Source: Verrucomicrobiota bacterium (GTDB lineage: Bacteria; Verrucomicrobiota; Verrucomicrobiia; Limisphaerales; UBA9464). From it: 64,000 bases of DNA. Below are positions 36,486-64,000 of this stretch, piece after piece. The notes under the pieces were generated by a model. It saw nothing but the letters and a program-made list of their open reading frames with translations. It was not told the DNA's origin and ran no database searches. The stretch's first letter is position 1. Every line of letters begins with the position of its first letter. A program made the translations under genes and the position numbers. The stretch is taken from the NCBI GenBank assembly GCA_017309115.1, contig JAFLEF010000001.1, positions 184,616 to 248,615 of the forward strand, written 5' to 3'.

Positions 36486-37223
36486 ATGTCGGACGTCCCC
36501 CAACCCCGCGAATTCACCACCACCCGGTGGAGCGTCGTGCTGCGTGCCGGCGGGGCGAGTCCGGAGGAAGCCCAGTCCGCGCTGGAACAACTCTGCCGCG
36601 ATTACTGGTATCCGCTCTACGCCTACGTTCGCCGCAAGGGCCGTTCCCCCGAAGACGCCGCCGACCTCACGCAAGACTTCTTCGCCAAACTGTTGGCCAA
36701 TGACTTCACCCAGGGTCTGACCCCGGATCGCGGTCGCTTCCGATCCTTTCTGTTGACCGCCCTCAGCCGATTCCTCGTCACCGAATGGCAGAAGGGCCAG
36801 CGGCAGAAGCGGGGCGGCGGAACCTTTACCGATTCCCTCGACGCCCTGATTGCCCAACGCGGCGAGTCCAGTTACCTGGGCGAAGCAGCGCATGGCGAAA
36901 CACCCGAAAAACTCTTTCAGCGCACCTGGGCGGAGACGCTGCTCGCCCGCGTGCTGGAACGTCTCGCCGCCGAGTGCGCGCATCGAGGCGACGTGCGTTT
37001 TGAGGTGCTCCGGCCATTTCTAGCCACCGGGGACGAGCCCCCAGCGTTGTTGGAGGCCGCAGCGCAGCTCAATCTGGCGTTGCCGGCCTTCAAGTCACTC
37101 CTGCACCGATTCCGTCAGCGGTATCGCGAGCTGTTGATGGACGAAGTGAGTCAGACCGTCGGCACGCGCAGCGACATCGCTGAAGAACTGCGCGGCTTGC
37201 TCCAAGCCTTGCGAGCTCACTGA
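36486..37223 (+). CDS. ECF-like sigma factor of the Ser/Thr-kinase-associated type (sigma-1)
   Basis: 245 aa. MSDVPQPREFTTTRWSVVLRAGGASPEEAQSALEQLCRDYWYPLYAYVRRKGRSPEDAADLTQDFF is region-2-like. The C-terminal ...LALPAFKSLLHRFRQRYRELL is region-4-like. Three paralogs of identical length lie in the window, and no anti-sigma gene is adjacent. Confidence 0.85.
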   Translation: MSDVPQPREFTTTRWSVVLRAGGASPEEAQSALEQLCRDYWYPLYAYVRRKGRSPEDAADLTQDFFAKLLANDFTQGLTPDRGRFRSFLLTALSRFLVTEWQKGQRQKRGGGTFTDSLDALIAQRGESSYLGEAAHGETPEKLFQRTWAETLLARVLERLAAECAHRGDVRFEVLRPFLATGDEPPALLEAAAQLNLALPAFKSLLHRFRQRYRELLMDEVSQTVGTRSDIAEELRGLLQALRAH

Positions 37224-37254
37224 GCAAGAAGGACTGGTTGAGAGAAAAATGCCG

Positions 37255-37344
37255 GTAGGGCGACGCTCCGCGGAGCCGTTCATCTGTGGACTCCTGACGC
37301 GTCATTCGCCGGGACCCGAACGGCTCGGCAGAGCCTCGCCCTAC
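37255..37344 (+). repeat. family-A palindromic intergenic element
   Basis: gtagggcgacgctccgcggagccgttcatctgtggactcctgacgcgtcattcgccgggacccgaacggctcggcagagcctcgccctac. Followed by cttaccc/cttaccg heptads and ctctcaac motifs up to ~37450. Confidence 0.85.
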
Positions 37345-37526
37345 CAACTCTCCCCTTTCCGGCCTTACCCGCTTACCCCTTACCCGCTTACCGCTTCGCG
37401 CTTACCGACTTCGTCTCTCAACTCTCAACGTTCATCTCTCAACTTTCCAGCCCCCTACCAGCACCCAGGTATTCCCAAATCCCACCGGTTCGCCACGATC
37501 ATCGGCAAAAGGAATGGAGATTCCCC

Positions 37527-37554
37527 CGAACCCTTCCTCGGCAAACGCGGTGTA
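37527..37554 (+). promoter_or_regulatory. candidate ECF-type promoter, CGAACC-N16-GGTGTA
   Basis: One of seven sites with the same bipartite motif and an exact 16-nt spacer. It ends 11 nt before ATG 37566. Confidence 0.5.
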
Positions 37555-37565
37555 ACTCCAGTGAG

Positions 37566-38249
37566 ATGACTGTTCCGAATCTGAAATCGCGGGCCGTCCA
37601 CCACGGCTTCACTCTGATCGAACTGCTCGTGGTCATCGCCATTATTGCCGTCCTCGCTGGCATGCTCCTGCCCGCCTTGGCTAAAGCGAAACACAAGGCG
37701 CTTGGAGTCCGGTGTCTCTCGAATGAACGGCAACTGGGCCTGGGTTTCGGAATGTATCTGCCCGACAACGCCGACCGGTTGCCCTATTCGCCCGAAGGAT
37801 ATCCCAACATCGCATTTGTGGATTTCTACAAGTTGATGCTTCCCTACCTGCCTACCAACGGCACGTTCTACCGCTGCCCGACCGACAAGGGTCCGATGAA
37901 CGTAATCTTTTCAAAGGCCTTCAATGTACCCACCAATCGGCTGCCGGTGCTGGCCTCCTATTGGTACGTGCCCGGTCTATCACACCTCTCCAAGCCCAGC
38001 AGCTTCACACCCAGACCGTATTCGATGCCAGCTGTCAGTTTTCCTTCGCAGAAGATCTTCTCTACCTGCCTCGCCATCGCGGGCAAGCAGGACATTATCA
38101 ACGGTAAGTTCATTAATCCTCGTGGGCACGGCGCCACCGGCTGGAATTTGTTGTTTGGCGATGGGCACAGCGGATTGGTGCGCGTGCGCGATATCCGGCC
38201 TGACCCGCAGGCTTATCTAGGTGCGCTCGACTGGTCTTCCCCTGGCTGA
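37566..38249 (+). CDS. prepilin-type N-terminal cleavage/methylation protein, H-X9-DG-like
   Basis: [27 protein letters not shown], with C-terminal [16 protein letters not shown]. Sits between sigma-1 and kinase K1. Confidence 0.8.
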
Positions 38250-38330: not shown

Positions 38331-41300
38331 GTGCCCCAGCGAATGAATCTTTGCCCTCGCTGCCAAACCCCACTCGGGCGCGACGTGGGCGGCCTCTGTA
38401 CCGCCTGTCTGTTGGAGGGCGCCTTGCCGGCAGCCGATGGTTTGGCCGAGCCCATCTCCGCGCACGAACTCATCACAGACACCGCCCTGATTCAGCACTT
38501 CGGTCCCTACGAACTGCTCGAGGAGATCGGGCGAGGCGGCATGGGCGTGATCTACAAAGCGCGTCAGCCCGGACTGGACCGCGTCGTCGCGCTCAAGATG
38601 CTGCTGGCGGGTGAATTCGCCGACGCCAAGGCCCGGGAACGGCTCCTGCGCGAGGCCAAGATTGCCGCCCGCCTCAGCCATCCCGGCATCGTCACCATTC
38701 ACGAAGTGGGCGAACACCAGAGCCGACCCTACTTCGCCATGGAGTACGTGCCCGGCCGCAACCTCGCCCAGCATTGCCGCGACGGTCTATTGCCCGTGGC
38801 CACGGCGGTCCGCTATGTCGAACAACTCGCCCGGGCCGTCCACTATGCGCATCAGCACGGCGTCATCCACCGCGACCTCAAACCAGCCAACGTTCTGATC
38901 AGTCCCGACGACGAGCCGAAGCTCACTGACTTCGGTCTGACCAAGTCGCTGGTGGATCCGACCCAGACCGTTGAGTCGGCCGGTTCGCCCAACTTCATGG
39001 CGCCCGAGCAAGCCGACAGCACCTTGGGCACCACCGGTACACCCACCGACATCTACGGCCTCGGGGCAATCCTCTACTACCTCCTCACCGGACGTCCGCC
39101 CGCGGTGGGCGAGACCCTGAGCGAAACCCTGCGCAATGTGGTCGCCGGTGAACCGGTGGCTCCACGGCAACTGCGCCCCGCCCTGCCGCGCGATCTGGAA
39201 ACCATCACCCTCCGGTGTCTGGAGAAGGAACCCGCCCGTCGCTACGCCAGCGCCCAAGACGTCGCCGACGAACTGGCCCGCTGGCAACGCCACGAACCCA
39301 TCCTCGCCCGACCCGCCACCGGCCCCGAGCGCCTCGCCAAATGGGTCCGACGCCGACCCGCCATCGCCGCTCTCACTGCCGCCTGCGCGCTGGCGGTGAT
39401 TCTCGGTTTCGCGGGCGTCACTTGGCAGTGGCGACGGGCCGACGCGGAAGCCACCGCGGCCGCACGGGCCACCGTCGAAAGCCGCGCCTCGGAACTAGCG
39501 GCGCTGCGCAACGCCTATGTGGCCGAGATGACCATCGTCAGCCAGGCGGCTCAGCAGCAACGCTGGCCGGAAGTGCGATATAGCTTAGCGCGAACCAAAC
39601 CCGCTCCCGGGAAGCCCGACCTACGAGGTTGGGAATGGCGTTACCTCTGGCAGGCCAGTCGCCTCGACGCCGATGGCCGGCTGGCTGTGAGTACCAATGT
39701 GATTGGCTCGATGGCGGCCTTGGAGGATGGACGGACGGTGGTGCTGGGGGAAACGGAAGGGGGCTTTTCCTTATGGGATACCTCTTCGGGCCGCGAAACG
39801 TATCGCCTGCCGGAAACCATCAATCGGGTGCGGCATCCTTCTCTGTGGGGTGGCGCTTTGGTCATCTGTCGGGTGGCTACCATCCCGGGCACCGGGATGC
39901 TGGCCTATACCGAGTGTCGCAGCCCTACCAATAGCTTTGTCCACCTCTGGCATGTGGGACGCCGCGAATTAGTCCGCTCGATTCCGGTGTCCGGCATTCC
40001 GCGGTATCTGGCGGCTAGTCCCGACGGTCGTACCGTGGCCTGCAGCCTGATGGCGCCCGAGCGGGGGACGCCGGTGTTTTCCGTGGAGGATGGAACCCCG
40101 GTGGCGAACATCGAGAGCGAACCCTCGGGCTATTCCGCCTGCCATGCCCTGGCGTTCACGGCGGATAGCCAGGCTCTTTGTCTGGAGGATTACGGCACGA
40201 AGAGCGTGCGGGTGGTGAACCTCGCCACCGGACAGGACCGGTACCGCTTTCCCCACGAACAGGACATCCTCCTGACCGTGGCAGTCTCCCCCGACGGGCG
40301 CTGGCTCGTCACCGGGGCCGGCTTTGATAACAAACTTCCTCGGGTGCTGGTGTGGGATCTGCAAACCGGTGAGCGGAAAATGGAACTTCCCGCCAGCAGT
40401 CAGTTCGCGTTGAGCTTTTCCCCAGATGGCCGGCGTCTAGTCACGGGACTAAGCGTCTGGCACGTGCCTGAGTTCACCTTGGAGCGGGAGTTCACCGGTG
40501 CCGAGGCCAACCGGAGGGCAGTGTTATTGCTGGCCGATGGCGACACCCTGTTAGCGGGGTATGGTGGCGACATCCTGCGCTGGCAGCTGAGTTTACCGGC
40601 GCCCCATCGGCGAGGGTTTTCATTGGGCGAAGGCGCCGTGTGCGTCCCCTTTCTGCCGAACGCGGAAGGCGTGTTGATCTCCCGGACCAACGGTCGGGTG
40701 GACCGGGCGGTGGCGCCCGACTTCAAACTGGTCCCCGTGCCTGCCTTGGGCACCGACGCCGTGGCGCTCGCCTGGCTGACCGACCCTGATCAACTCGCCG
40801 TCGCTCGGCGGGAAGGCACCATTACCTTGCATGCGGCGGATACGTTTGCAGAGACGAGTCGCTTCGCCGGCATGACCCAGCCACCGACCGGATTCGCCTA
40901 CTGGATCCCCAAGGCCGGCGTGCTCGTTTTGGGAACGGTGGACGATCGGTTGGAGGCCTGGGATGTGCGGTCGCATCAACGAGTCTGGGAGGCACCCCAT
41001 CTCCCGGGACGGGAATTGAGCGCCCCGACGCCGGAGGGTGTCATCTGGCAGGTTCATGTTGATGGCTGGCTGGTCGGATACGACTTCCTGAACAAGCGGA
41101 TCCTTCGCCAACCGTTGGATCACGACGGCATGCATCGATTGGCCGTCTCTCCCGACGGAAACAGCCTGCTGCTCACTGCGCCTGAGGGGTACAAGCGGCT
41201 GGTGGACATTCGAACCGGACGGACGGTGGACCGCTTTGAGAACCTGAACCTGCCGGCCCCGCACGGTGGGGCCTTCTGGCCGAACGAGGATCGGATTGGT

Positions 41301-41510
41301 TTCTCCGGCCTCCATGTCGTGGACCGCGTTACCGGCCGGAGGCTTTTGACGCTCGAGTCGGATTTGGCCTTCGCCTCCGTGACCTTCATTTCCGACTCAG
41401 GAAGTCTGGTACTGACCGGGGACAGCCAACGCCGCTGTTATCTGTGGCGTGCGCCTTCGTGGGAGGAGATCCGCCGGGTGGAAGCGGCCGAAGCTGCTGC
41501 TGAGTGGTGA
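38331..41510 (+). CDS. membrane Ser/Thr protein kinase with extracytoplasmic WD40-like beta-propeller (K1)
   Basis: N-terminal CPRC...CTAC. Hanks kinase motifs GRGGMGVIYKA, HRDLKPAN, DFG, APE. One TM (PAIAALTAACALAVILGFAGV), then ~690 aa with repeated SPDG/...LWD-type blades. Start is GTG 38331 or ATG 38343. Confidence 0.9.
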   Translation: MPQRMNLCPRCQTPLGRDVGGLCTACLLEGALPAADGLAEPISAHELITDTALIQHFGPYELLEEIGRGGMGVIYKARQPGLDRVVALKMLLAGEFADAKARERLLREAKIAARLSHPGIVTIHEVGEHQSRPYFAMEYVPGRNLAQHCRDGLLPVATAVRYVEQLARAVHYAHQHGVIHRDLKPANVLISPDDEPKLTDFGLTKSLVDPTQTVESAGSPNFMAPEQADSTLGTTGTPTDIYGLGAILYYLLTGRPPAVGETLSETLRNVVAGEPVAPRQLRPALPRDLETITLRCLEKEPARRYASAQDVADELARWQRHEPILARPATGPERLAKWVRRRPAIAALTAACALAVILGFAGVTWQWRRADAEATAAARATVESRASELAALRNAYVAEMTIVSQAAQQQRWPEVRYSLARTKPAPGKPDLRGWEWRYLWQASRLDADGRLAVSTNVIGSMAALEDGRTVVLGETEGGFSLWDTSSGRETYRLPETINRVRHPSLWGGALVICRVATIPGTGMLAYTECRSPTNSFVHLWHVGRRELVRSIPVSGIPRYLAASPDGRTVACSLMAPERGTPVFSVEDGTPVANIESEPSGYSACHALAFTADSQALCLEDYGTKSVRVVNLATGQDRYRFPHEQDILLTVAVSPDGRWLVTGAGFDNKLPRVLVWDLQTGERKMELPASSQFALSFSPDGRRLVTGLSVWHVPEFTLEREFTGAEANRRAVLLLADGDTLLAGYGGDILRWQLSLPAPHRRGFSLGEGAVCVPFLPNAEGVLISRTNGRVDRAVAPDFKLVPVPALGTDAVALAWLTDPDQLAVARREGTITLHAADTFAETSRFAGMTQPPTGFAYWIPKAGVLVLGTVDDRLEAWDVRSHQRVWEAPHLPGRELSAPTPEGVIWQVHVDGWLVGYDFLNKRILRQPLDHDGMHRLAVSPDGNSLLLTAPEGYKRLVDIRTGRTVDRFENLNLPAPHGGAFWPNEDRIGFSGLHVVDRVTGRRLLTLESDLAFASVTFISDSGSLVLTGDSQRRCYLWRAPSWEEIRRVEAAEAAAEW

Positions 41511-41551
41511 GAAGCGACCAGAACCCGCGCTGCAAAAAATCCAACGATCTT

Positions 41552-41579
41552 CGAATCTTCTTCTCGGAAGTGCGGTGTG
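41552..41579 (+). promoter_or_regulatory. candidate ECF-type promoter, CGAATC-N16-GGTGTG
   Basis: Same motif and spacer as the other six sites. Ends 8 nt before ATG 41588. Lies 42 nt after the K1 stop. Confidence 0.5.
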
Positions 41580-41587
41580 CACTGGGC

Positions 41588-43807
41588 ATGAATTGGAAAC
41601 GCTCCCAGATTTGTTTTGCCTGGCTCTCTCGCATCCTCGCCCTACTGACCCTCACCGCCGAGTCCCGTCTCGCGGCGCAATCGCCAACTCCGTTCCGGAT
41701 CGACCTCGAATTTGGGGACGAGTGGTCTCAACCGGTCTACGAGAATGACGAGATTCGGGTTCGGATCATCCCGACGGGCGGACAACCGTCCGACCCGGCC
41801 GTTGAACTAAGCTGGTGGATCTCAGTCGATGATGGAGCGGGTGCCCAGCTTCCGTCGCCCACCGAGGGAGTAGAGTTGATCCGGCCCGGCGACCCCGCAC
41901 GGTGGATTACCCTCAAGATACCCGACGACACAGAGGTCCAGTCGGGTTCCGATCGGTATGCCGCAATCAAGATGAGCTCTTCGGCGGGACCCACTACCCT
42001 CGCCAATGAGTGGCTCCCCCTACTGGACAATGAATTTCGCTTCGCGGATGGGGTCTTCGAAACCCTGGGAGAACCCGCCCTCAGGCTCTCCCACACGTAT
42101 TTCGTCGATAGTTGGGGAATGGTCTCACCTAACCTATTTACGCCGACGCCAGACGGAGGCGCCTACGTCGTCTCTCATACCTCAACTGCGACCGAAACAA
42201 TGACATCGGTCCTGCGACACATCCGACCGGATCTGACCCTCGATCCGGATTACCGGGCCGAGACTCCGACCAACTCCTCCATCATTGGAGTTGCTCCCAT
42301 TCCTGGAGGCGGAGTAGTCGTGTTAGTGAATCGCGAGATCGATGGCCAGCAGCGGAGTGAGGTTGTCCGCCTAGACGCCAAGGGTATTGTGAACGCGGCC
42401 TACACGACGAATGCTCGGTCCTCGTTGGGCGACTTCTCGCCGTACCTTGTCCAGGCGACGGACGACGGGGTTGCCTACCTCGGCGGCTCGGGACGAATCG
42501 TCCGGTTGTCGGCGGACGGAACCGTGGATCGCCAGTTTAAGGAAGCCACCTTCAACGGAGATCTGGTGTCACTGGTCCGGCAGGATGAGAAGCTCTATGC
42601 ACTGGGATCTTTCAGCGACGTGGCGGGGCTGGGCACAAATCGGTTCGGAGCGTTCCGGATGCGGGAGTCCACGGGAACTGACCCGAGCTTTTCTGTTATC
42701 CTCAAAACCAACCAGAATGTGATTACTCAATTGGCGGAATTGGGTGACGGAAGGCTAGTCACCCACGGTGCGCCGCTTCTGAACCTGCATGATCACTCCG
42801 GGGTCACTCTTACGAACTTGTTTCAATGGATTTACCGTTACTCCCCACCGGTGCCCTTCCTTGGTGGCGGTAGTACTTCCAGTTCTGACTGGAACGCCCT
42901 TGCCCGCATGGGAGATGGACGGGTGGTAGGCTCAACATTTCACTTTGGTTCGCACGGTGGCGGCTTCGGTTTAACCACAAGATTAGAATCCATCGACTCG
43001 ATGTTGCTCGAACGAGGCCTGCAAGCGGCTGTACCATCAAAAAGCGCCCCACTGCCAATTCTTGGCAGTTCTTTCTGGGTTCCTTCTGCCGTTTACGCTG
43101 CTGGAGAATTCCTCTGGTTTGAAGACTCCTACCAGTCTTTCCAACTCCCCAATCCCATCGGCGAGCGGATGACCTACCGCCGGGTGCGTTGGACCGATGC
43201 TCCAGCAGAGGGCTTCGGAATGAGCCCTTCCCACACAGCCAAGCCCGGCATCCAATCCCACCAACCCATTGCCGTCGTCCGGCGATTCGGCAGTTCCGCT
43301 CGCGCCGCGCAAGTGGAGGCCCGGATCTCGTCCATCGCTTCGGATCCTCCTCAAACACTTCTTTCCTCGACCGTTTCCGTGTCCTTCCAACCAGGCGAAA
43401 CTTTAAAGCCAGTTTTCCTCCCCGAAGGAACACATCTCGCTCCCGGCTCGGTGGCGATCGTTCGGACCACCCTTCTCCCTGGTCCTCAGGCACCGATAGA
43501 GGGCGCCGCCACTGTGGACGCTTTGGTCGTCGGCGTGTCCCCAGACGCCGGCCCCAAGATGGGCATCCACCAGTTCGGCACCGAAATCCTGAGTGGAGAA
43601 CCGATCTTCAGTCTGACGGGCCCACCCGGGGTGCATGGAGTCCGCTATTCCGTGGATGGATTCCGCTGGAGTGGACTCGAAAGCGTGGACCTCACTTCCG
43701 AATCGCCGTTCGTTCTCTTCAAAACTCCATCCTGGGTTCACGACGGAGAATCTGCCCCTGGCCCCGACGCAGAAATGCTCTTGCTCCAAGCCATCCCGAG
43801 TCCATGA
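41588..43807 (+). CDS. secreted repeat protein with delta-60/DUF5122-like beta-propeller repeats
   Basis: Signal peptide MNWKRSQICFAWLSRILALLTLTAESRLAA (start trimmed from 41504, which overlaps K1). Repeats of the type RLDAKGIVNAAY..., RLSADGTVDRQFK...GDLVSLVRQDEKLYALGSF. Confidence 0.7.
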   Translation: MNWKRSQICFAWLSRILALLTLTAESRLAAQSPTPFRIDLEFGDEWSQPVYENDEIRVRIIPTGGQPSDPAVELSWWISVDDGAGAQLPSPTEGVELIRPGDPARWITLKIPDDTEVQSGSDRYAAIKMSSSAGPTTLANEWLPLLDNEFRFADGVFETLGEPALRLSHTYFVDSWGMVSPNLFTPTPDGGAYVVSHTSTATETMTSVLRHIRPDLTLDPDYRAETPTNSSIIGVAPIPGGGVVVLVNREIDGQQRSEVVRLDAKGIVNAAYTTNARSSLGDFSPYLVQATDDGVAYLGGSGRIVRLSADGTVDRQFKEATFNGDLVSLVRQDEKLYALGSFSDVAGLGTNRFGAFRMRESTGTDPSFSVILKTNQNVITQLAELGDGRLVTHGAPLLNLHDHSGVTLTNLFQWIYRYSPPVPFLGGGSTSSSDWNALARMGDGRVVGSTFHFGSHGGGFGLTTRLESIDSMLLERGLQAAVPSKSAPLPILGSSFWVPSAVYAAGEFLWFEDSYQSFQLPNPIGERMTYRRVRWTDAPAEGFGMSPSHTAKPGIQSHQPIAVVRRFGSSARAAQVEARISSIASDPPQTLLSSTVSVSFQPGETLKPVFLPEGTHLAPGSVAIVRTTLLPGPQAPIEGAATVDALVVGVSPDAGPKMGIHQFGTEILSGEPIFSLTGPPGVHGVRYSVDGFRWSGLESVDLTSESPFVLFKTPSWVHDGESAPGPDAEMLLLQAIPSP

Positions 43808-43858
43808 CGGCGTCGGCAGCGATCCCGTAAGTCCCAACCGAGCCCGTGCAACGTCTCG

Positions 43859-43886
43859 CGAATCCTTTTTCCGAAAGTGCAGTAGC
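43859..43886 (+). promoter_or_regulatory. candidate ECF-type promoter, CGAATC-N16-AGTAGC
   Basis: Same architecture as the other sites. Ends 9 nt before ATG 43896. Confidence 0.45.
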
Positions 43887-43895
43887 AAGGGGTGC

Positions 43896-47273: not shown

Positions 47274-47310
47274 GGGGCTGGAGGAAGTTGAGAGACACAT
47301 ACCCGCCCTG

Positions 47311-55127: not shown

Positions 55128-55134
55128 GATCGCT

Positions 55135-55162
55135 ACCACGGCAAAATCGGGCGAAGGATTCC
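55135..55162 (-). promoter_or_regulatory. candidate ECF-type promoter, GGAATC-N16-CGTGGT
   Basis: On the minus strand: ggaatc cttcgcccgattttgc cgtggt. Ends 7 nt before the K2 ATG (55127). Confidence 0.45.
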
Positions 55163-55279
55163 TGGAATCTGAAATACCATTGCAACCCATCCGAGCCTTG
55201 ATTTGTTCAGCCGCGGCGAGAGATAGAACTCGGAATCTGCCTTCCGGTCCACCGATGTCGCCCCCTAGGTCAACACGCG

Positions 55280-55370
55280 GTAGCGCGACGCTCCGCGGAG
55301 CCGTTCCCGTGTGGACACCCGACGCGTCATTTCGCCGAGACGCGAACGGCTCGGTGTAACCTCGCCCTAC
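55280..55370 (+). repeat. family-A palindromic intergenic element
   Basis: gtagcgcgacgctccgcggagccgttcccgtgtggacacccgacgcgtcatttcgccgagacgcgaacggctcggtgtaacctcgccctac. Confidence 0.85.
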
Positions 55371-55646
55371 CTTCCTTGCCGCTTCCCGCTTCGCGCTTAC
55401 CGATTTTGCCTCTCAGCTCTCATAGTTACACCATTCGAGCATCCCAAGATGGCCGGACCTGGTGGGAGTTAGATTGGGAAAAGAGCACGCATTGGAGTAC
55501 GGAAAAAATCCCCGTCGGCTCCGACCATTTCGCTGGCGTGGCGGAACTGAGCCTTCTGACGGATCCTTGGGGTTTCAATAACGAGGACGCCATGTACCTC
55601 CTTCAAGTAATTCGTGCCCCCTGAAGCCAAGGATCCTGCCAACTGC

Positions 55647-56311: not shown

Positions 56312-56420
56312 GTTCGATGCATGCTTCCGGAGAGGTTTGATGTCAAACTGTGAATTTCGCATCAAATGAAAGAGTTGATGCTGACTAGCGCCCCCGATGA
56401 GGCCAGCAGCGTAACCCTCA

Positions 56421-56485
56421 CTGACCAGCAACGACCGGTCGGCCCAGCTGCGCCGGCCAACCGGGGACAGCCCAGCGGTCCATCT
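56421..56485 (+). repeat. family-C element
   Basis: ctgaccagcaacgaccggtcggcccagctgcgccggccaaccggggacagcccagcggtccatct. Confidence 0.75.
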
Positions 56486-56495
56486 ACTTTTCCGG

Positions 56496-56556
56496 TCTCT
56501 CAACTCTCAACCTTCAACTCTCAACTGGTCTTTCTCTCAGCTCTCAGCTCTCAGCT
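56496..56556 (+). repeat. heptanucleotide arrays (tctcaac-like x4, ctctcag x3)
   Basis: tctctcaactctcaaccttcaactctcaact ggtcttt ctctcagctctcagctctcagct, 45 nt upstream of the sigma-3 ATG. Confidence 0.8.
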
Positions 56557-56600
56557 TTTCTTCCTCGGCCTTTTCTCCACGCTCTCCGGCACCAGATCCC

Positions 56601-57338
56601 ATGCCGGAAGTCCCACCACCCCGCGAATTCACCACCACCCGGTGGAGCGTCGTGCTGCGCGCCGGCGGGGCGAGTCCGGAACAGGCTCACGCGGCGCTGG
56701 AACAGCTCTGCCGCGATTACTGGTATCCGCTCTACGCCTACGTCCGGCGCAAGGGACATTCCCCCGAGGACGCCGCCGATCTGACGCAGGATTTTTTCGC
56801 CAAGTTGTTGGCCAATGACTTCACCCAAGGTCTAACGCCGAACGGCGGGCGCTTCCGCTCCTTCCTGCTCACTGCGCTCCATCGGTTCCTCGTGGACGAA
56901 TGGCGCCGGGCGAAATCGCTGAAGCGCGGTGGCAATGCGTTCACCACGTCCCTGGAGGTCCTGATCAGCGAGCGCGGCGAGACTGGGTATCTCGGCGAAA
57001 CCCTGCCGGCAGATTCCGCGGAACACCTCTTCCAGCGGGTGTGGGCAGACACGTTGTTCGCGCGAGTCCTGCGACGACTCGCCGCGGAGTGCGCCGCCCG
57101 GGGTAATGCCCGCTTCGACGTGATCGAACCCTTCCTGGCCCTCGACGGAGAACCGCCCGCCTTGGCCGAAGCCGCCGCCCAACTCGCATTGTCCGTACCG
57201 GCCTTCAAATCGCTGCTGCACCGTCTTCGCCAGCGCTACCGGGAACTGCTGCAGGATGAGGTAAGTCAGACCGTCGGCAGTCACGGGGATGTGGATGATG
57301 AACTGCGGGCCCTGCTGAAGGCCTTGCGGGGAAATTGA
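56601..57338 (+). CDS. ECF-like sigma factor, STK-associated type (sigma-3)
   Basis: 245 aa. MPEVPPPREFTTTRWSVVLRAGGASPEQAHAALEQLCRDYWYPLYAYVRRKGHSPEDAADLTQDFF. Kinase K3 starts 46 nt downstream. Confidence 0.85.
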   Translation: MPEVPPPREFTTTRWSVVLRAGGASPEQAHAALEQLCRDYWYPLYAYVRRKGHSPEDAADLTQDFFAKLLANDFTQGLTPNGGRFRSFLLTALHRFLVDEWRRAKSLKRGGNAFTTSLEVLISERGETGYLGETLPADSAEHLFQRVWADTLFARVLRRLAAECAARGNARFDVIEPFLALDGEPPALAEAAAQLALSVPAFKSLLHRLRQRYRELLQDEVSQTVGSHGDVDDELRALLKALRGN

Positions 57339-57348
57339 AGATGTCCCG

Positions 57349-57376
57349 CGAATCCTCCGCCGCCAAACTCCGTGTT
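57349..57376 (+). promoter_or_regulatory. candidate ECF-type promoter, CGAATC-N16-CGTGTT
   Basis: Lies in the 46-nt sigma-3/K3 spacer and ends 8 nt before ATG 57385. Its spacer shares 11 of 16 positions with the 37527 site. Confidence 0.5.
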
Positions 57377-57384
57377 TCCTCGTC

Positions 57385-60300
57385 ATGAGTGAATCCGGCC
57401 AGAGGTGTCGCCGCTGTGGGGCGCTGCTGGGAAGTTCCTTGGCCGGGAGCCTCTGTGCCGTGTGTCGGCTGGAAGCCATCCTGCCATCGGAAGGAGAGTT
57501 TTCCGCCTCGGTGTCCGCTCGCGATCTCACCGAAGACTCTGCGCAGGTTCAGCACTTCGGCCCCTACGAACTGCTCGAGGAAATCGGCCGAGGCGGCATG
57601 GGCGTGATCTACAAGGCGCGTCAGCCCGGCCTGGACCGCGTGGTCGCGCTCAAGATGCTGCTGGCGGGTGAATTCGCCGACGCCAAGGCGCGGGAACGGC
57701 TCCTGCGCGAAGCCAAGATTGCCGCCCGCCTCAGCCACCCCGGCATCGTTACCATTCACGAAGTGGGCGAACACCAGAGCCGACCCTACTTCGCCATGGA
57801 GTACGTGCCCGGCCGCAACCTCGCCCAGCATTGCCGCGACGGTCTGTTGCCCGTGGCCACCGCAGTCCGCTACGTCGAACAGCTCGCCCGGGCTGTCCAC
57901 TATGCGCATCAGCACGGCGTCATCCACCGCGACCTCAAGCCGGCCAACGTCCTGATCAGTCCCGACGACGAGCCGAAGCTCACCGACTTCGGTCTCACCA
58001 AGTCGCTCGTCGATCCGACCCAGACTGTCGAGTCCGCGGGTTCGCCCAACTTCATGGCGCCCGAGCAGGCCGACTGCACCCTGGGCTCCACCGGTACGCC
58101 CACCGACATCTACGGCCTCGGCGCCATCCTCTACTACCTCCTCACCGGACGTCCGCCCGCAGTGGGCGAGACCCTCAGCGAAACCCTGCGCAATGTGGTC
58201 GCGGGTGAACCGGTGGCTCCACGGCAACTGCGTCCGGCTCTGCCGCGCGATCTGGAAACCATCACCCTCCGGTGTCTGGAGAAGGAACCCTCCCGTCGTT
58301 ACGCCAGCGCCCAAGACGTGGCCGACGAACTCGCCCGCTGGCAACGCCACGAACCCATCCTCGCCCGCCCCGCCACCGGCCCCGAACGCCTCGCCAAATG
58401 GGTTCGCCGCCGACCCGCCATCGCCGCTCTCGCCGCCGCCTGCACGCTGGCTGTAGTTCTCGGTTTCGTCGGCGTTACTTGGCAGTGGCGGCGGGCCGAG
58501 GCCCAGGTTGAGGCCACCGCCCGCGCGAACTACGCCGCGACTCTCGGAAATGTTCGGCAGCGGATAGACGAGGGATCCTATCGGGACGCCCGTCAGCAGT
58601 TGTATGCCTTACCCGAGCAATTCCGGGGCTGGGAATGGGGACGCCTCCTCAACCTCGCCCATCGGGAAATCCTGGACGCCACCGTTTTGACCAACGGCTG
58701 GACCGGACATCTCGACCGAATTCCAATACCGCCCGATTCCCTCGGCCAAGCGGTCAGTTCCGATCAGCGGTGGGTCGCCTGCTGGGGCAGCGGTCGTCTC
58801 GAAATTCTCAGCCTAACCAACGAGGAATCGGTTTTCCGGGCGGGCTCCTCTTCCAACCGGGTGACTCACGCCGCCTTCAGTCCCTCCGGTCACCAACTGG
58901 CCACCGCCGGTCCCGGTCCGGGATACACTCTCTGGAGTTGCGGCGACTGGCGGATCCTTCGTCGCTGGGCCACTCCTCAGGAACGACCGCTCAACCTTTG
59001 CTTCAGCCCCGATGGCCGACAGATCGCGACTGCTGACGGATCACGGCAGGTCTGTCGGTACGACGCAGGGAATGGAACCGAACTCGGCCGTTTCGAAGGA
59101 GCTCTGGACGCCTACGATTGGGTGCGCTTCACCCCGGATGGAACGAAGTTGATCGGTAGCACTCAGAGGAGCGGAGAACTCGCCCGGCTTACGATCTGGT
59201 CGACCGCGTCGGGCCAGGTCGAAGCGGAGTTGCCACCGAAAGCCGCTGGGCTGCGCTCGATCGAGCTCACTGCCGACGCCACCCGGTTTGCCACGGTGGA
59301 TTATCAAGGCGTGGCGGCGGTGTGGAAGGTGGGGGCCGATCGGCCCTTCTTTCAGACGCCCGCCGAAGGAGACCAAATCATCTGGGCCGCGGCCGCTCCG
59401 GATCAGCCGCGCTTGGCAACGTTCCGGGCCTCGGCCCAGCAGGCCAAATTCTGGGATCTGGATTCGGGCCAGGCCCTCCCGATTTCCCCTACCACCATGA
59501 ACACCCTGCGGGTTGGCTCGGACGGGCGGACGTTGCTGTCGTGCGGCGGCACGCTGGTCCATCGGTGGGACTGGACCACGGGTCGGCCGTTGGATGCGTT
59601 CGGTTTGGGAGATGTTGCCATTCACTCGCGGGTGGATGTCTCGCCCGACGGACAGTGGGTGAGCGCCTTGATCGATCATTTCCCGACACCCGCGACGCTG
59701 CACGTCTGGCCGCTCCGAACGGTGGACCGGCGATTGGCGCCACCTTATACGACCATGCGGTCAGCCGTATCACCGGATGGCAGCCTCATTGCACTCGGTC
59801 ACTTGGATTCCCGCATCTCGCTGTGGAACTCCCGCACCGGCGAGCGGACCGGGTGGCTGCTGGGTCACTTCCGGCAGGTCAACGATGTGGCGTGGACGGC
59901 CGATGGACGCACGCTGTTCTCGGCTTCGGGCGATCACACGGTCCGCCGTTGGAAGGTGGCCGAACAGCGGTTGGAGATGACGTTGACCCATCTGACGCGA
60001 CCGCTCTGGACGCTCTCTGTCACGCCGGATGGCCGGCGCGTCGCGGCAGTGGACGTGTCGGGCCGCGTGGCCGTGTGGGAAGGCGACTCAGGAGTGTTGA
60101 TTCGCTCGTGGGAGATTCCCCGGGAGAATGAGGTGCTCCCCGTCCATCTGGTTTGCCTCAGCCCGAGTGGCCGCGAGCTGGTGTTGACCGGGTTCTCGGC
60201 CGCCGGAGTCTGGTCGGTGGAGACCGGAGAACGGATCACGCGCTTCAATTCGGCGTTCGAAGGGGGAGACTTCGATCCGATCGCTGCGGGATTCTCGCCC

Positions 60301-61410
60301 GACGGTCGGCGCCTAGCCACGGTGGACCGATCCGGTCGCTTGCGGATCTGGGAAACTCGCCATTGGCGGCAAACTCATTCGTCGGAGGCAGCCGAAGGAT
60401 CGCCTCATCTCACGTTCTCTCCGGATGGCCAACGGCTCTTCCTCTCCACCAGCCAGGCCCTGTCGCCAGCCATGGGTCAGGTGAGCGTGGAGATTCACGA
60501 TGGCGTCACCGGGGCACCGTTGCTGTCCCTAGGCCGGCAACGCGGATGGGGAACTTCCATCGCGTCCTTCGACCGGGGCCAGCGGCTTCTCCACACCGTC
60601 ATCGACAACCGCACGCCCACTCATGGCACGGACCTGATGCAGGCGTTGCCCTGGAAGGACCAGGATTATCCCGGCCGACCCGGTGAGCCGTTGGGGGAAC
60701 GCGTCACACGGTTGGCCCGGGCCCGGCATTGGGAAACGTTCCGGACATCGGTCGTCCTCCCGGACACTCCCAGCCCCGTGCCGCCCGAACCCCGCACGAA
60801 CTGGCTCGCCCGCGATCCGTCCACGCCGACGAACTGCGTGGATCTCACCGCCAGCTACAATGGCCATTTGGACACGGGATGGCAGGCGGACACGTTCGTG
60901 GATAGCTTCGGCAACGATCTCGCTAGCCTCCCGCGCGGAATCGTTCAGCTCGACGGCGTGACGTGGGATATCCGGGGCGTGGTCTCCACCGGTCTCCCGG
61001 AGCGACCCCTGTCTCCTTGGGCCTTCGGGCGGACGATTACGAACCTTCCCGTCCGGGGATTGGTCCGCCGTCTGCACGTTCTCCACGCCAGTGCGGATTC
61101 CTCGACGTCGGGCGGACGCGTGGGCCGCTATCGTCTTCATTTCGCCGGGGGAACCACGGCCGATCTCACCCTGGATCTGAGCGAGGACATTGGTGAATTC
61201 TGGTCAACTCACCGCCACTCCCACTGCCGTCGTGGAAGCGTGGCCTGGGAAGGCGACAACGCCGCCGCCACCCGCATGGGATCCAAGGTACGCCTGTTCC
61301 ACCGAGCCTGGGACAACCCACATCCGGATCAGGAACTCGTCTCGCTGGAAATGATCGGTGACCACGACGCCACCACCTTCTTCGTGGTCGCAATCACCGC
61401 GGAGCGTTAG
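57385..61410 (+). CDS. membrane Ser/Thr protein kinase with WD40 beta-propellers and extra C-terminal domain (K3)
   Basis: 1341 aa. CRRC...CAVC, and a kinase core nearly identical to K1. One TM, many WD40-like blades (SPDG..LA.....G....W), and a ~250-aa C-terminal domain (CVDLTASYNGHLDTGW...LDGVTWDIRG...) absent from K1 and K2. Confidence 0.9.
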   Translation: MSESGQRCRRCGALLGSSLAGSLCAVCRLEAILPSEGEFSASVSARDLTEDSAQVQHFGPYELLEEIGRGGMGVIYKARQPGLDRVVALKMLLAGEFADAKARERLLREAKIAARLSHPGIVTIHEVGEHQSRPYFAMEYVPGRNLAQHCRDGLLPVATAVRYVEQLARAVHYAHQHGVIHRDLKPANVLISPDDEPKLTDFGLTKSLVDPTQTVESAGSPNFMAPEQADCTLGSTGTPTDIYGLGAILYYLLTGRPPAVGETLSETLRNVVAGEPVAPRQLRPALPRDLETITLRCLEKEPSRRYASAQDVADELARWQRHEPILARPATGPERLAKWVRRRPAIAALAAACTLAVVLGFVGVTWQWRRAEAQVEATARANYAATLGNVRQRIDEGSYRDARQQLYALPEQFRGWEWGRLLNLAHREILDATVLTNGWTGHLDRIPIPPDSLGQAVSSDQRWVACWGSGRLEILSLTNEESVFRAGSSSNRVTHAAFSPSGHQLATAGPGPGYTLWSCGDWRILRRWATPQERPLNLCFSPDGRQIATADGSRQVCRYDAGNGTELGRFEGALDAYDWVRFTPDGTKLIGSTQRSGELARLTIWSTASGQVEAELPPKAAGLRSIELTADATRFATVDYQGVAAVWKVGADRPFFQTPAEGDQIIWAAAAPDQPRLATFRASAQQAKFWDLDSGQALPISPTTMNTLRVGSDGRTLLSCGGTLVHRWDWTTGRPLDAFGLGDVAIHSRVDVSPDGQWVSALIDHFPTPATLHVWPLRTVDRRLAPPYTTMRSAVSPDGSLIALGHLDSRISLWNSRTGERTGWLLGHFRQVNDVAWTADGRTLFSASGDHTVRRWKVAEQRLEMTLTHLTRPLWTLSVTPDGRRVAAVDVSGRVAVWEGDSGVLIRSWEIPRENEVLPVHLVCLSPSGRELVLTGFSAAGVWSVETGERITRFNSAFEGGDFDPIAAGFSPDGRRLATVDRSGRLRIWETRHWRQTHSSEAAEGSPHLTFSPDGQRLFLSTSQALSPAMGQVSVEIHDGVTGAPLLSLGRQRGWGTSIASFDRGQRLLHTVIDNRTPTHGTDLMQALPWKDQDYPGRPGEPLGERVTRLARARHWETFRTSVVLPDTPSPVPPEPRTNWLARDPSTPTNCVDLTASYNGHLDTGWQADTFVDSFGNDLASLPRGIVQLDGVTWDIRGVVSTGLPERPLSPWAFGRTITNLPVRGLVRRLHVLHASADSSTSGGRVGRYRLHFAGGTTADLTLDLSEDIGEFWSTHRHSHCRRGSVAWEGDNAAATRMGSKVRLFHRAWDNPHPDQELVSLEMIGDHDATTFFVVAITAER

Positions 61411-61451
61411 CGGCAGCGGTTTCGCCTCCTGAAACTTTCTTGCGCGAGGCG

Positions 61452-61479
61452 CGAATCCTTTGACCCGGCATTACGTGTG
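61452..61479 (+). promoter_or_regulatory. candidate ECF-type promoter, CGAATC-N16-CGTGTG
   Basis: Same architecture as the other sites. Ends 10 nt before ATG 61490. Confidence 0.5.
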
Positions 61480-61489
61480 CCTTGAATGC

Positions 61490-64000
61490 ATGAACTGCAC
61501 TTCAAGAATTCCCTCTCCCTCACACCACCGGTTCGCCGGACGTCGGCTGGCCTCCGCAGTGGCGATGCTCGCCGGCAGCCTGCTCTCGGCCGTATCCGCC
61601 CAACCGCAGGCGGCCGAGTCCCCGGACACTGACCCGTTGCCCCGGCTGTTTCTTCCCACCCCCGCTACCCGGCCCGCGGCGAAGATCGCCGGACTACCGC
61701 CGACACCGGCTCAACGACGCTTGCTGCATCTCAATCCGGAGTTCGCGGCCAAAGTCGCCCGAGGGTTCCCGCCGGCACAGGAGTTTCGTCTGGACCTCCT
61801 CGAGAATCAGGACGTCACCGTGCACCTCACCGAGATTCGCACCGCCGCGGACGGTGCGCTCGAACTCACCGGCACTCTGGCCCACCTGCCCGGTGGCCAA
61901 GCGCACTTGGTGGTCAGCGGCGAGTCCGTGAGTGGTGTCGCCGAAGTTCCCGGTCTGGGTACCTACCACTGGCAACCCACCGACTCCGGAACGGTGGTCG
62001 TGACGCGACAAATTCCCGTCTCCTCCTTCCGCTGCCTGACGCTCGACCCCGCGCCCTCCGCGGCCCAGCGACTGGCTCGTCAGAGCGTCGCTGAGGCAGG
62101 CGACCCGCCGGCCGGAATCTGGGATCCCACCACCGAGCCGGTCACCCTCGACGTCCTGATTCTCTACACCCGCAAGGTGCTCACCGCCCACGGTGACGAG
62201 GCCTCACTACAACAGTCGATCCAGCGAATGGTGGACAGCGCCAACGCCAGCTACACGAACAGCCTGATCGGGGTACGATTGAATCCGGTGTTCGTCGGAC
62301 TCCACGACACCTGGACCGAGTCAGGCAACATGGGCGCCGATTTTTTCACACTCTTTGGCGATACCCGCGCCACCTCCTTGCGGAACGACTACCAGGCAGA
62401 CTTCGTTTATCTCATCATCGAATCCGACTCCAACGGTTACAGCGGCGCCTCGACCCTGCTCGGTAATCCGCTGGGCGATCCTAATAGGAACTGGTGCATC
62501 CTGCGCCGCACGGTGCTCATCGGGAATGCCCGATGGGCGGAGCACGAGAGTCTCACCTTCACCCACGAGACGGGTCACCTCCTCGGCGCCGGACACGATC
62601 GTGAGCACGGTCATGGCAGCGGCTTTCAGGGACAACCTCCGGCGTATTCCTTCGGCAATGGCCATCGCTTCACCGCCGGAGGCGTTACCTACCGGACCGC
62701 GATGAGCTACGATCCAGGGGTTCAACTGTCACTCTTCTCCAATCCAAACCGATCCTTTGACGGCGTGCCCATGGGTATTCCCAACGGCCAACCCGGAGAA
62801 GCCGACAACGCGCGGACCTTGAATCGGGTCGCTCCGATTGCCGCCCACTACCGCGTCGCCCACAGCCGCATTGGCTTCTCCCAATCCAGGTTCATTGTAC
62901 GCGAAGGGGAACCTTCCGCGACGGTCCGGCTCGAACGTCGAGGCGATCTGAACACCGCCACCCAAGTCACCGTGGACTTCGCGACCTCGAGCACCGCCCG
63001 CTCCGGCTTTGATTATCGGAAGCCGACGAAGGTTGCGATTCCCTTTGCCACGAATCAGTCCGTGGCTGAGATCGTGATCCCGATTCTGCAGGACAACCTG
63101 GTGGAGGGCACCGAAGTCATCCAACTCGCTTTGTCGAAACCCGTCGGCGACCACGGCATCGATCTGACGGGAACCGCCCAAGTCCTCCTGCTCGATGACG
63201 AGCCCAACTACACCGTCACACCGTCCAACCTCTCCCTACAGGAAGGCGAATCGGCAGACGTCACAGTCGAATTCCTGGGCGCTCTGGAGGCCGGTGTGAC
63301 CAACACGCTCGAAGTCGCCCTGAATTTGGACGGTGGTTCGGCGACGTTTGTCGCCTCGGCGGATCCCGGATCTGCCGACGGCACACTCGACACCAACCGC
63401 CTGGAGTTCACCGCCGAAACTCGGAGCCAGACCCTGCACCTCACCCCGCTTCCCGACGCACTCGAAGAAGCCGATGAGGTCGGAATCTTTGGCCTTGGCA
63501 ATGCGCGCCTCACCGTCCGAGTTCTGGATTCCAACCGTCCCGGATCAATCCGTCCGGTGAACTCTCCCAACGCCTCGGTGATTTCCCTGACCGCGCTGCC
63601 TTCCGGGGGAGCCCTGATGGCCGGGAACTTCACGCAGATCGGATCCACCCGCCGCACCGGCATTGCCCGCCTGGCGGCCGACGGAACTTTGGACCAAACC
63701 TTCACTCCGCCCGAACTGGTGGCGTCCCCCATCCAAGGACCCGGGATTCCACCGGCCAAGGTGATCACCCTCACCCCGTTGACGAATGGAGATTGGTTGG
63801 CCGGCGGCTACATCGGACTGGCGGACGGTCAACCCGTTGGAAATCTCCTCCGACTCCAACCGGACGGCAGTCAGGACACCCAGTTCCAGCATCCGGGCTT
63901 TGACGGCGCGGTGTGGTGTGCCACTGAGCAATCCGACGGACGCATCCTGGTGGGCGGCATCTTTGATCATGTGGGAGCCGAGAGAATCCGGGGACTCGTC
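61490..64000 (+). CDS. secreted metzincin / Calx-beta / delta-60-type propeller protein (MP3), 3' end cut by window edge
   Basis: Hand-translated; not in the ORF track because it has no stop in the window. Open for 837 codons to base 64000. MNCTSRIPSPSHHRFAGRRLASAVAMLAGSLLSAVSA is the signal peptide. HETGHLLGAGHD starts at 62564, with Met-turn AMSY. Calx-beta-like modules (RIGFSQSRFIVREGEPSATVRLERRGDLNTATQV...), then ARLAADGTLDQTF and RLQPDGSQDTQF repeats. Confidence 0.85.
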   Translation, partial: MNCTSRIPSPSHHRFAGRRLASAVAMLAGSLLSAVSAQPQAAESPDTDPLPRLFLPTPATRPAAKIAGLPPTPAQRRLLHLNPEFAAKVARGFPPAQEFRLDLLENQDVTVHLTEIRTAADGALELTGTLAHLPGGQAHLVVSGESVSGVAEVPGLGTYHWQPTDSGTVVVTRQIPVSSFRCLTLDPAPSAAQRLARQSVAEAGDPPAGIWDPTTEPVTLDVLILYTRKVLTAHGDEASLQQSIQRMVDSANASYTNSLIGVRLNPVFVGLHDTWTESGNMGADFFTLFGDTRATSLRNDYQADFVYLIIESDSNGYSGASTLLGNPLGDPNRNWCILRRTVLIGNARWAEHESLTFTHETGHLLGAGHDREHGHGSGFQGQPPAYSFGNGHRFTAGGVTYRTAMSYDPGVQLSLFSNPNRSFDGVPMGIPNGQPGEADNARTLNRVAPIAAHYRVAHSRIGFSQSRFIVREGEPSATVRLERRGDLNTATQVTVDFATSSTARSGFDYRKPTKVAIPFATNQSVAEIVIPILQDNLVEGTEVIQLALSKPVGDHGIDLTGTAQVLLLDDEPNYTVTPSNLSLQEGESADVTVEFLGALEAGVTNTLEVALNLDGGSATFVASADPGSADGTLDTNRLEFTAETRSQTLHLTPLPDALEEADEVGIFGLGNARLTVRVLDSNRPGSIRPVNSPNASVISLTALPSGGALMAGNFTQIGSTRRTGIARLAADGTLDQTFTPPELVASPIQGPGIPPAKVITLTPLTNGDWLAGGYIGLADGQPVGNLLRLQPDGSQDTQFQHPGFDGAVWCATEQSDGRILVGGIFDHVGAERIRGLV

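Follow-up and report, generated by a model that had tools for sequence, protein, structure and literature searches.

Kinase-linked ECF-type sigma factors and a shared promoter-like element in a verrucomicrobial island encoding secreted metzincin-like proteins

Introduction

What joins three sigma factors of extracytoplasmic function (ECF) type, three Hanks kinases and three signal-peptide proteins of ~1100 aa into a single chromosomal island? The question arises from a 64,000-nt stretch of a Verrucomicrobiota genome (assembly GCA_017309115.1, contig JAFLEF010000001.1, positions 184,616-248,615), hereafter the window, in which the island takes up positions 36486-64000. Besides the sigmas (sigma-1 to sigma-3), the kinases (K1 to K3) and the large proteins, which are metzincin-like (MP1 to MP3), it encodes a propeller protein (prop), a prepilin-like protein and VapBC. 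An initial annotation had described the locus as three diversified circuits of sensor kinase, sigma and secreted protease. Open reading frame (ORF) calls and translation agree with its map in gene order, strands and lengths, in the convergent K2, in VapCB and in MP3 running off the window end, and Pfam and NCBIfam uphold its domain reading (Sigma70_r2 in the sigmas; Pkinase and WD40 in the kinases; Reprolysin_3/4/5, Calx-beta and DUF5122/delta-60 in the MPs). In our reading, to which the sequence evidence lends a probability of roughly 60%, the three sigmas and the three membrane kinases control one shared set of secreted-protein genes.

A two-box element precedes the kinase and secreted-protein genes

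The same short element stands before the unit formed by the prepilin-like gene and K1, and before prop, MP1, MP2, K2, K3 and MP3; the exceptions are the sigma genes and VapBC. It consists of a -35-like box, GCGAATCC, a fixed 16 nt and a -10-like GT within CGGTG, CCGTG or CAGT. The first box begins 36-39 nt 5' of the ATG of prop, MP1, MP2, MP3 and K3, and the element ends 11-15 nt from the start codon. Judged by its sequence, the element has the form of an ECF promoter: its two boxes are short and their spacing never varies. A position weight matrix (PWM), seeded partly from window sites, found only seven sites of at least 12 bits on the two strands of the whole window, all of them in the island, on the coding strand and 5' of start codons (Table 1); the site before the prepilin-like gene was recovered, at 25 bits, by a PWM built without it. 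For the plain pattern GAATCY-N16-GT there are 10 occurrences where 4.3 +/- 2.1 are expected, a count that 0 of 100 shuffles reached.

The element and its position are kept 5' of kinase and cargo genes beside orthologous sigmas in seven other assemblies. Across the 172 loci that we fetched (labelled L; 3.8 Mb, both strands), matches of at least 20 bits were confined to loci of close relatives, where they lie ~37 nt 5' of the start codon throughout and precede genes for kinases, prepilin-like proteins, MPs, LRR_5 proteins, propeller proteins, LamG/Calx proteins and PAF-AH-like proteins; at lower scores, equally spaced variants stand before additional kinase and MP genes. Orthologous sites stand before the prepilin-like genes of L170 and L169 and before the kinase genes of L082 and L085, and the element occupies the 46-60-nt gap between sigma and kinase genes. 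By PWM, shuffling and these seven assemblies, the shared promoter-like motif mentioned in the initial annotation is present and strongly conserved.

Distant sigma-kinase loci carry, 35-60 nt 5' of the kinase start, a related but different motif, TGTAACC(TTT)...GTAA (14 of 52 loci), and the hexamers TGTAAC, GTAACC and AACCTT are ~15-fold enriched in the 90 nt before their kinase genes (L003-L080, L091-L168). A promoter-like element 5' of the kinase gene is thus a trait of the sigma family, and the motif at the equivalent place changes with the sigma clade, which is our main argument that the adjacent sigma reads the element. The same observation bears on an alternative in which some other factor, one more of the many ECF sigmas of the genome or a transcription factor, binds the element, or in which the element is a 5'-proximal translation signal, the sigma-kinase pairs being mere neighbours of the cargo. 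This alternative fits the absence of the element before every sigma gene and its close approach, to within 11-15 nt, to the start codon, and the window does hold at least one further ECF-like sigma (9291-10634). We nevertheless regard it as unlikely: among all the fetched loci the element occurs solely beside sigmas of the sub-clade, it lies within the short sigma-kinase gap, distant sigma clades have a different motif at the same place, and two short boxes separated by an invariant 16-nt spacer have the form of an ECF promoter.

The sigma factors are ECF-type and keep the acidic sigma2.2 motif

The three sigmas share their N-terminus and are 72-76% identical in pairwise comparison. Each matches Sigma70_r2 at 28-42 bits (Pfam cut-off 24), and regions sigma2 and sigma4 of M. 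tuberculosis SigE and SigH can be aligned with the family profile; for sigma4 this alignment covers profile positions 183-220, where Pfam r4 gives no match. With only 245 aa, the proteins have no room for sigma3. An AlphaFold2 (AF2) model of sigma-1 (pLDDT 73.5; residues 1-13 and 105-116 disordered) had exclusively ECF sigmas as top Foldseek matches, in ~200-column alignments with weak E-values (0.003-0.02). On profile and model evidence, the three sigmas are of ECF (group 4) type, with regions sigma2 and sigma4, and Pfam, profile alignment and locus survey all agree with the initial description of ECF-type, Ser/Thr kinase (STK)-linked sigmas of one length and one N-terminus. Sigma-1 is identical in sequence to P0001, a protein from a Verrucomicrobia metagenome-assembled genome, and the closest relative of sigma-3 is P0047 (80% identity).

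An affinity to ECF43 and its member EcfP, suggested initially, did not survive comparison. In ECF43, direct phosphorylation of the sigma by a co-encoded Hanks kinase is established (EcfP/PknT, EcfK/PknS) (PMC13147305), and what defines the group is that the acidic sigma2.2 motif DAED has given way to a phospho-acceptor Thr (QTTA/STTA) (PMC13147305, PMC8999054). The island resembles the systems of V. parahaemolyticus (EcfP/PknT) and X. citri (EcfK/PknS) in its co-encoded transmembrane Hanks kinases, found in 93 of 99 fetched loci of at least 8 kb, in the variable extracytoplasmic sensor and in the lack of an anti-sigma gene: as in the initial annotation, none was detected in the island, where small ORFs were not exhaustively searched. 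Its predicted regulon, too, would serve secretion or the envelope, as do those of EcfK (type VI secretion system) and EcfP (polymyxin resistance) (PMC13147305, PMC8999054). The island sigmas, however, keep the acidic motif: their sigma2.2 segment, D57-A-A-D60-L-T-Q-D, aligns to DAEDLTQE of SigE, with D60, T62 and Q63 invariant or nearly so in 63 sequences. Further differences are the N-terminal Zn ribbon and WD40 sensors of the kinases, the secreted metzincin-like proteins among the predicted targets, and a promoter-like element that stands 5' of the kinase gene instead of the sigma gene. Membership in ECF43 was therefore rejected. Since DAADLTQD is retained, the EcfP mechanism is not simply transferable, and a phospho-switch in these sigmas must differ from it.

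By the criteria of a conserved neighbouring STK, no anti-sigma and a retained DAED-like motif, and by these alone, the island sigmas resemble the uncharacterised STK-linked ECF groups from Planctomycetes, for which Jogler 2012 is reportedly a source and whose example members come from a related phylum. These groups comprise ECF59-ECF62 and ECF217 (Casas-Pastor 2021; PMC7826278, PMC8999054). Sigma phosphorylation has been proposed for those that keep DAED (PMC7826278, PMC8999054), which may work unlike ECF43 and of which more members need characterising (PMC8999054); the literature that we searched yielded no experimental work on them.

Candidate phospho-sites in the island sigmas, picked by conservation alone, are T13 and S16, in an invariant FxTT(R/H)WS motif of the disordered N-terminus, and S117, directly after the disordered Gly-rich (RGGG) linker between sigma2 and sigma4. 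Linker phospho-sites are known in EcfK and SigH (PMC13147305).

The kinases are mosaic proteins

Motifs and Pfam agree with the initial annotation on the architecture of all three kinases: an N-terminal CxxC-x12-14-CxxC Zn ribbon, a kinase domain, one hydrophobic span and a WD40 sensor. With Pkinase matches of E = 1e-50 and the motifs GRGGMG, VALK, HRDLKPAN, DFG and APE, K1, K2 and K3 are by sequence Hanks-type Ser/Thr kinases. WD40-bearing membrane kinases are common in Planctomycetota and relatives (PMC11032199). The frameshift noted earlier in K2, which aligns to K1 in two frames, was located to a 1-nt deletion in a run of seven C; one added C restores a K1-like full-length frame, so the frameshift could be an assembly error, or the homopolymer could be a slippage-prone tract.

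Over the kinase, juxtamembrane and transmembrane regions K1 and K3 are 99% identical, and a gene-conversion tract of ~900 nt with ~95% DNA identity links the two genes; outside it, the Zn-ribbon regions are 36% and the sensors ~30% identical. The two kinases of assembly GCA_019634635.1 (L081/L082), whose kinase domains are 98% identical, repeat this mosaic pattern, which argues that kinase cores are homogenised within a genome. The outer parts follow different partners. Among nine sigma-kinase pairs or loci, compared in 36 non-independent pairs, sigma identity correlates with that of the kinase N-terminal region (Spearman 0.56) and not with that of the sensor (-0.17). Behind a K3-type sensor comes an MP3-type protein, both in the window and in L081 (sensor 72%, MP catalytic domain 93% identical) and L087 (59% and 70%); K1-type sensors pair with MP1-type proteins, here and in L170 (58% and 80%). 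L081 itself combines a sigma-1-like sigma, the prepilin-like gene and a K1-type Zn ribbon with a K3-type sensor and MP3-type cargo. In sequence comparison, then, the Zn ribbon appears to track the sigma and the sensor the downstream cargo, a pattern that recombination inside the conserved kinase core would explain. The co-inheritance of sensor and cargo may reflect functional matching or mere physical linkage.

These mosaics raise the possibility that the kinase doubles as the anti-sigma, its Zn ribbon sequestering the sigma at the membrane until autophosphorylation or phosphorylation of the sigma releases it, with specificity residing in the sigma/Zn-ribbon pair and the kinase domain being generic. 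Sigmas that keep a DAED-like core-binding motif need restraint, no anti-sigma gene was detected, and the ribbon is present family-wide at the kinase N-terminus (21 of 23 distant loci looked at, and all close loci). The correlation of sigma with N-terminal identity, the pairing in L081 of K1-type ribbon and sigma-1-like sigma with a K3-type sensor, and the divergence of the ribbons beside homogenised kinase domains point the same way. The correlation nevertheless derives from nine loci only, and the physical proximity of the sigma gene to the kinase gene's 5' end would be enough to generate it even if the two proteins never interact; the ribbon, moreover, differs from the HxxxCxxC of known zinc anti-sigma domains. 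We hold this idea to be rather doubtful, but with the core-binding motif retained in the sigma, docking or anti-sigma activity of the ribbon is the most interesting reading that remains beside our preferred one.

It can be extended, as tentatively, to a three-part adaptor, in which a sigma-specific Zn-ribbon module would hold a competent, DAED-bearing sigma at the membrane, a generic core would be kept uniform within the genome by gene conversion, and a periplasmic sensor would be matched to the neighbouring cargo, for instance by sensing the protease's substrate or product. Were this true, recombination in the core would allow any block of sensor and cargo to be connected to any sigma, offering a new modular route to substrate-induced secretion circuits and a second mechanism of kinase control over sigma factors, distinct from that of ECF43.

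K3 carries an additional C-terminal domain, of a family of its own and without a Pfam match, for which a structure model (pLDDT 81.8) gives a jelly roll resembling AziU2/U3 and, after these, carbohydrate-binding modules; the model is a weak hint at a glycan ligand. Members of this domain family are also found by themselves, as small proteins, or fused to HEAT, TPR, WD40 and a sigma-70-family protein (P0145), and some sources label them 'beta-galactosidase'.

A probable single network with several sensory inputs

In the reading that we prefer, the adjacent sigmas would recognise the two-box element, while the sigma genes would be transcribed from other promoters. The periplasmic WD40 sensors, in K3 together with the jelly-roll domain, would bind an extracytoplasmic ligand and so switch on the cytoplasmic kinase, which would activate its own sigma, most likely through direct Ser/Thr phosphorylation. 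RNA polymerase with that sigma would then transcribe the kinase genes, creating positive feedback, and the cargo genes, those of putative cysteine-switch reprolysin-like zymogens, the propeller protein and the prepilin-like protein. If the element is a promoter, the mRNAs would be almost leaderless, starting a few bases past the GT box.

The three diversified circuits of the initial annotation are too strong a description of this arrangement: every unit has the same type of promoter-like boxes, K1 and K3 have nearly the same kinase domain, and sigma, kinase and sensor combinations are reshuffled between genomes. Given the same promoters and homogenised kinase domains, the island probably forms one network with several inputs and redundant sigmas, not three insulated circuits. 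The arrangement recalls the polysaccharide utilisation loci of Bacteroidetes, in which an ECF sigma, encoded beside the secreted or surface degradative genes that it induces, takes its signal from an envelope sensor, and which likewise occur in many paralogous copies per genome with differing cargo. Those loci differ in using a TonB-dependent transducer and an anti-sigma, with no Hanks kinase, and in carrying glycan-degrading, not metzincin-like, cargo.

Several observations weigh against our reading. The PWM scores in the window are inflated by the partial seeding from window sites, so that the independent evidence consists of the matches in other genomes and the unseeded prepilin-gene site. 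No element was found 5' of the sigma genes, where the best PWM scores are negative; most ECF sigmas autoregulate, and sigma genes free of the motif are thus unusual. The upstream region of K1 itself has no -35 box, so K1 is probably co-transcribed with the prepilin-like gene in an operon. The element lies so near the start codon that its role may be translational or otherwise regulatory. K2 is frameshifted in the assembly, and close-clade sigmas in L083 and L172 have no adjacent kinase in the DNA fetched (the L172 contig ends nearby). Lastly, the sigmas keep the acidic sigma2.2 motif, and their sequence gives no reason for inactivity without the kinase.

The secreted cargo

Each MP has a signal-peptide-like N-terminus (judged by eye), a pro-domain of ~200 aa, a reprolysin-like domain, two Calx-beta modules and about six DUF5122/delta-60 repeats, and the three are 34-44% identical in pairwise comparison. 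Reprolysin_5 matches at 38-51 bits (cut-off 27), Reprolysin_3/4 also match, and H308, E309, H312, G315, H318, D319 and the Met-turn residue M354 are invariant in 10 MP sequences. HExxHxxGxxHD and the Met-turn identify the MPs, by motif, as reprolysin-like (M12B) metzincins, and the giant metzincin/Calx-beta/propeller proteins of the initial annotation are confirmed as such in all three. A single Cys at the boundary of pro-domain and catalytic domain (MP1 region 44200-44300 and its equivalents in MP2 and MP3), likewise invariant in 10 sequences, fits latency by a cysteine switch of the kind found in ADAMs and MMPs, and the MPs are presumably active secreted proteases. Their nearest solved relatives are adamalysins and ADAMTS proteases. 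With the M12B family and P. aeruginosa Mep72 they share the zinc site, Met-turn and pro-domain Cys, but the matches are weak (ADAMTS-5 at E ~1e-4; Mep72 below cut-off), and their architecture of two Calx-beta modules, a DUF5122 propeller and an F[FLY]R[LV] domain is bacterial and uncharacterised.

That last domain, of ~70 aa and ending F[FLY]R[LV]xx (FLRLK in MP1), is shared by most proteins behind the element, whatever their family: in the window by MP1 and MP2, and elsewhere by the cargo of L082, L083, L085, L086, L169, L170 and L172, which includes MPs, LRR_5, LamG/Calx and unannotated proteins. It may be a common sorting or anchoring domain. Like the MP pro-domain and the N-terminus of prop, it has no Pfam match. 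An exhaustive search with the MP pro-domain and catalytic domain returned 714 cluster representatives at E <= 1e-30; a word-indexed search with those of MP2 returned 5 proteins. Prop has a signal-peptide-like N-terminus, a DUF5122 match below cut-off and 27% identity to the MP2 propeller region.

For the prepilin-like protein, initially assigned to the H-X9-DG family, the N-terminal methylation motif stands (N_methyl, E = 1e-8; TIGR02532), but the C-terminus reads H-X10-DG and no H-X9-DG family hidden Markov model matched (NCBIfam E <= 0.01, Pfam E <= 1). Orthologues with 73-84% identity lie between sigma and kinase genes in L081, L169 and L170.

Kinase linkage is family-wide, metzincin linkage clade-limited

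Of 8,000 candidates scored, 6,590 matched the sigma family at E <= 1e-5, and the family spans Verrucomicrobiota, Planctomycetota, Acidobacteriota and other phyla; a metagenome scan with sigma-1 gave, among the matches listed, nearly all relatives of ~50% identity. The MP catalytic domain was found in 8 of the 99 loci of at least 8 kb, every time beside a sigma at least 62% identical to sigma-1, and in none of the 86 distant ones. In five of eight other close-clade assemblies MPs lie beside a sigma or kinase: GCA_019634635.1 holds a similar supercluster of two sigmas, two kinases and three MPs; ERZ28654031 (L170) mirrors the sigma-1 module with sigma, prepilin-like gene, kinase, LRR_5 and MP; the others are JGI 3300028648 (L083/L085), GCA_002422905.1 (L087) and GCA_044226545.1 (L172). 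The other three have different large secreted proteins there (LamG/Calx/DUF5122, FG-GAP or unannotated), and alternative secreted cargo in the sub-clade comprises LRR_5, LamG/Calx, FG-GAP, PAF-AH-like and beta-lactamase-like proteins. The linkage of sigma, kinase and metzincin proposed initially therefore holds in related genomes but is confined to one verrucomicrobial sub-clade, and we rejected it as a property of the whole sigma family, which kinase linkage is.

In two related contigs (L083/L085 and L002), a sigma of the clade with no Hanks kinase next to it faces, in convergent orientation, a hybrid histidine kinase of Reg_prop/LamG type that comes with a GerE-type response regulator; this two-component system may substitute there for the Hanks kinase.

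The survey also bears on whether the island is simply a by-product of local duplication and recombination in a plastic, repeat-rich region, its kinases acting on non-sigma targets and no pathway running from kinase through sigma to protease. Repeats resembling repetitive extragenic palindromic (REP) sequences or miniature inverted-repeat transposable elements (MITEs) do fill the intergenic spaces, K1 and K3 have undergone gene conversion, the order of modules differs from genome to genome, there are passenger genes (toxin-antitoxin and AAA_14), and the MP family is large. We judge this explanation very unlikely. Upstream conservation is restricted to two boxes at fixed spacing and is seen in several gene families, even where the encoded proteins are no more than 34-44% identical, which duplication alone does not explain, and sigma-kinase adjacency recurs in 93 of 99 loci from several phyla.

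Implications

STK-linked ECF sigmas that keep DAED make up several large groups, the family described here alone counting more than 6,500 matches at E <= 1e-5, and in the literature searched we found no characterised member, target gene or switch mechanism for them. The island gives this uncharacterised class its first concrete predicted target genes. It unites testable material, namely a sharply defined promoter-like element, a predicted regulon of kinases and metzincin-like proteins and candidate phospho-sites, and its natural domain-swap kinases separate the sigma-tracking, catalytic and sensing parts; it also suggests how uncultured Verrucomicrobia might tune costly giant secreted proteases to external cues. 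STK-linked ECF signalling was already known; new here are the two-box element, the clade-specific metzincin linkage and the mosaic kinases. No metzincin/Calx/propeller regulon, promoter of such a regulon or mosaic kinases were reported in the literature searched.

Gene map, repeats and neighbouring genes

The long ORFs of MP1 and prop begin 5' of the likely start codons, and the starts used are given in Table 1. A 106-aa ORF at 37249-37569 overlies a repeat element and is probably no gene.

Table 1. Positions of genes, promoter-like sites, repeats and other features of the island (window coordinates).
Feature	Position	Strand	Remarks
sigma-1	36486-37223	+	245 aa; Pfam Sigma70_r2
prepilin-like gene	37566-38249	+	Pfam N_methyl, TIGR02532
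K1	38343-41510 (alternative start 38331)	+	Hanks kinase: Zn ribbon, kinase, one transmembrane span, WD40
prop	41588-43807	+	secreted propeller protein
MP1	43896-47273	+	metzincin-like, Calx-beta, DUF5122
MP2	47575-50898	+	architecture as MP1
sigma-2	51249-51986	+	245 aa; Sigma70_r2 42 bits, Sigma70_ECF 23 bits
K2	55127-52024	-	K1-type kinase, frameshifted; Pkinase and WD40
VapC	56087-55647	-	PIN domain, E = 1.6e-9
VapB, putative antitoxin	56311-56084	-	75-aa ORF
sigma-3	56601-57338	+	245 aa
K3	57385-61410	+	Zn ribbon, kinase, one transmembrane span, longer WD40 array, C-terminal jelly roll
MP3	61490 to beyond 64000	+	exits window after 836 aa; Reprolysin_5, Calx-beta, DUF5122
site before prepilin-like gene	37522-37557	+	CGAACCC-N16-GT variant, 25 bits, unseeded
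site before prop	41547-41582	+	TCGAATCT-N16-GT, 33.6 bits
site before MP1	43854-43889	+	36.3 bits
site before MP2	47532-47567	+	35.1 bits
site before true start of K2	55133-55167	-	AGGAATCC-N16-GT, 23.7 bits
site before K3	57344-57379	+	37.6 bits; in 46-nt sigma-3/K3 gap
site before MP3	61447-61482	+	30.6 bits
intergenic repeat element	31259-31957		three tandem 277-nt repeat copies
intergenic repeat element	35940-36291
94-nt palindromic REP/MITE-like element after sigma-1	37254-37347		family D2, 6 window copies
intergenic repeat element	47310-47500
REP/MITE-like elements between MP2 and sigma-2	50911-51135		families D2, D6; hairpin z = -4.9
intergenic repeat element	55279-55372
intergenic repeat element	56419-56490
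repeat runs 5' of sigma-1	36415-36432
repeat runs 5' of sigma-2	51143-51205
repeat runs 5' of sigma-3	56496-56558
K1/K3 gene-conversion tract	38510-39430 and 57560-58480		~900 nt
C7 run in K2	52792-52798	-	1-nt deletion
C-terminal domain of K3	60580-61407		modelled jelly roll
shared C-terminal domain, MP1	47060-47273
shared C-terminal domain, MP2	50680-50898

The intergenic repeat elements lie around the sigma genes and MP2, and an Rfam search of them gave no match. Copies of the 94-nt unit form hairpins with z = -2.4 to -7.4; the copy after sigma-1 is a long hairpin (-59.5 kcal/mol, z = -7.4) that might terminate transcription there or insulate sigma-1 from the sigma-dependent unit behind it, and the REP/MITE-like elements generally could be terminators or recombination substrates. 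Repeats of CTCTCAACT and CTCTCAGCT form short runs 45-110 nt 5' of each sigma gene, those upstream of sigma-2 and sigma-3 being 96% identical, and conservation also covers the 45 nt that adjoin each sigma start codon on its 5' side, L081 included. These upstream regions may hold the sigma genes' own promoter.

The putative VapB ORF lies 5' of VapC with a 4-nt overlap and has a weak antitoxin family match (DUF6364); the pair are probably passenger genes. A different toxin-antitoxin pair occupies the equivalent place in L081.

Four genes upstream of the island are without the promoter-like element: a 447-aa sigma with r2, r4 and a long extra region (9291-10634, minus strand), a 1540-aa GNAT/AMP-binding/PCP/thioesterase protein (10999-15621, plus strand), a BlaR1-type M56 peptidase (19271-21331, minus strand) and an FG-GAP protein with a Peptidase_S74 chaperone domain (27989-31177, minus strand).

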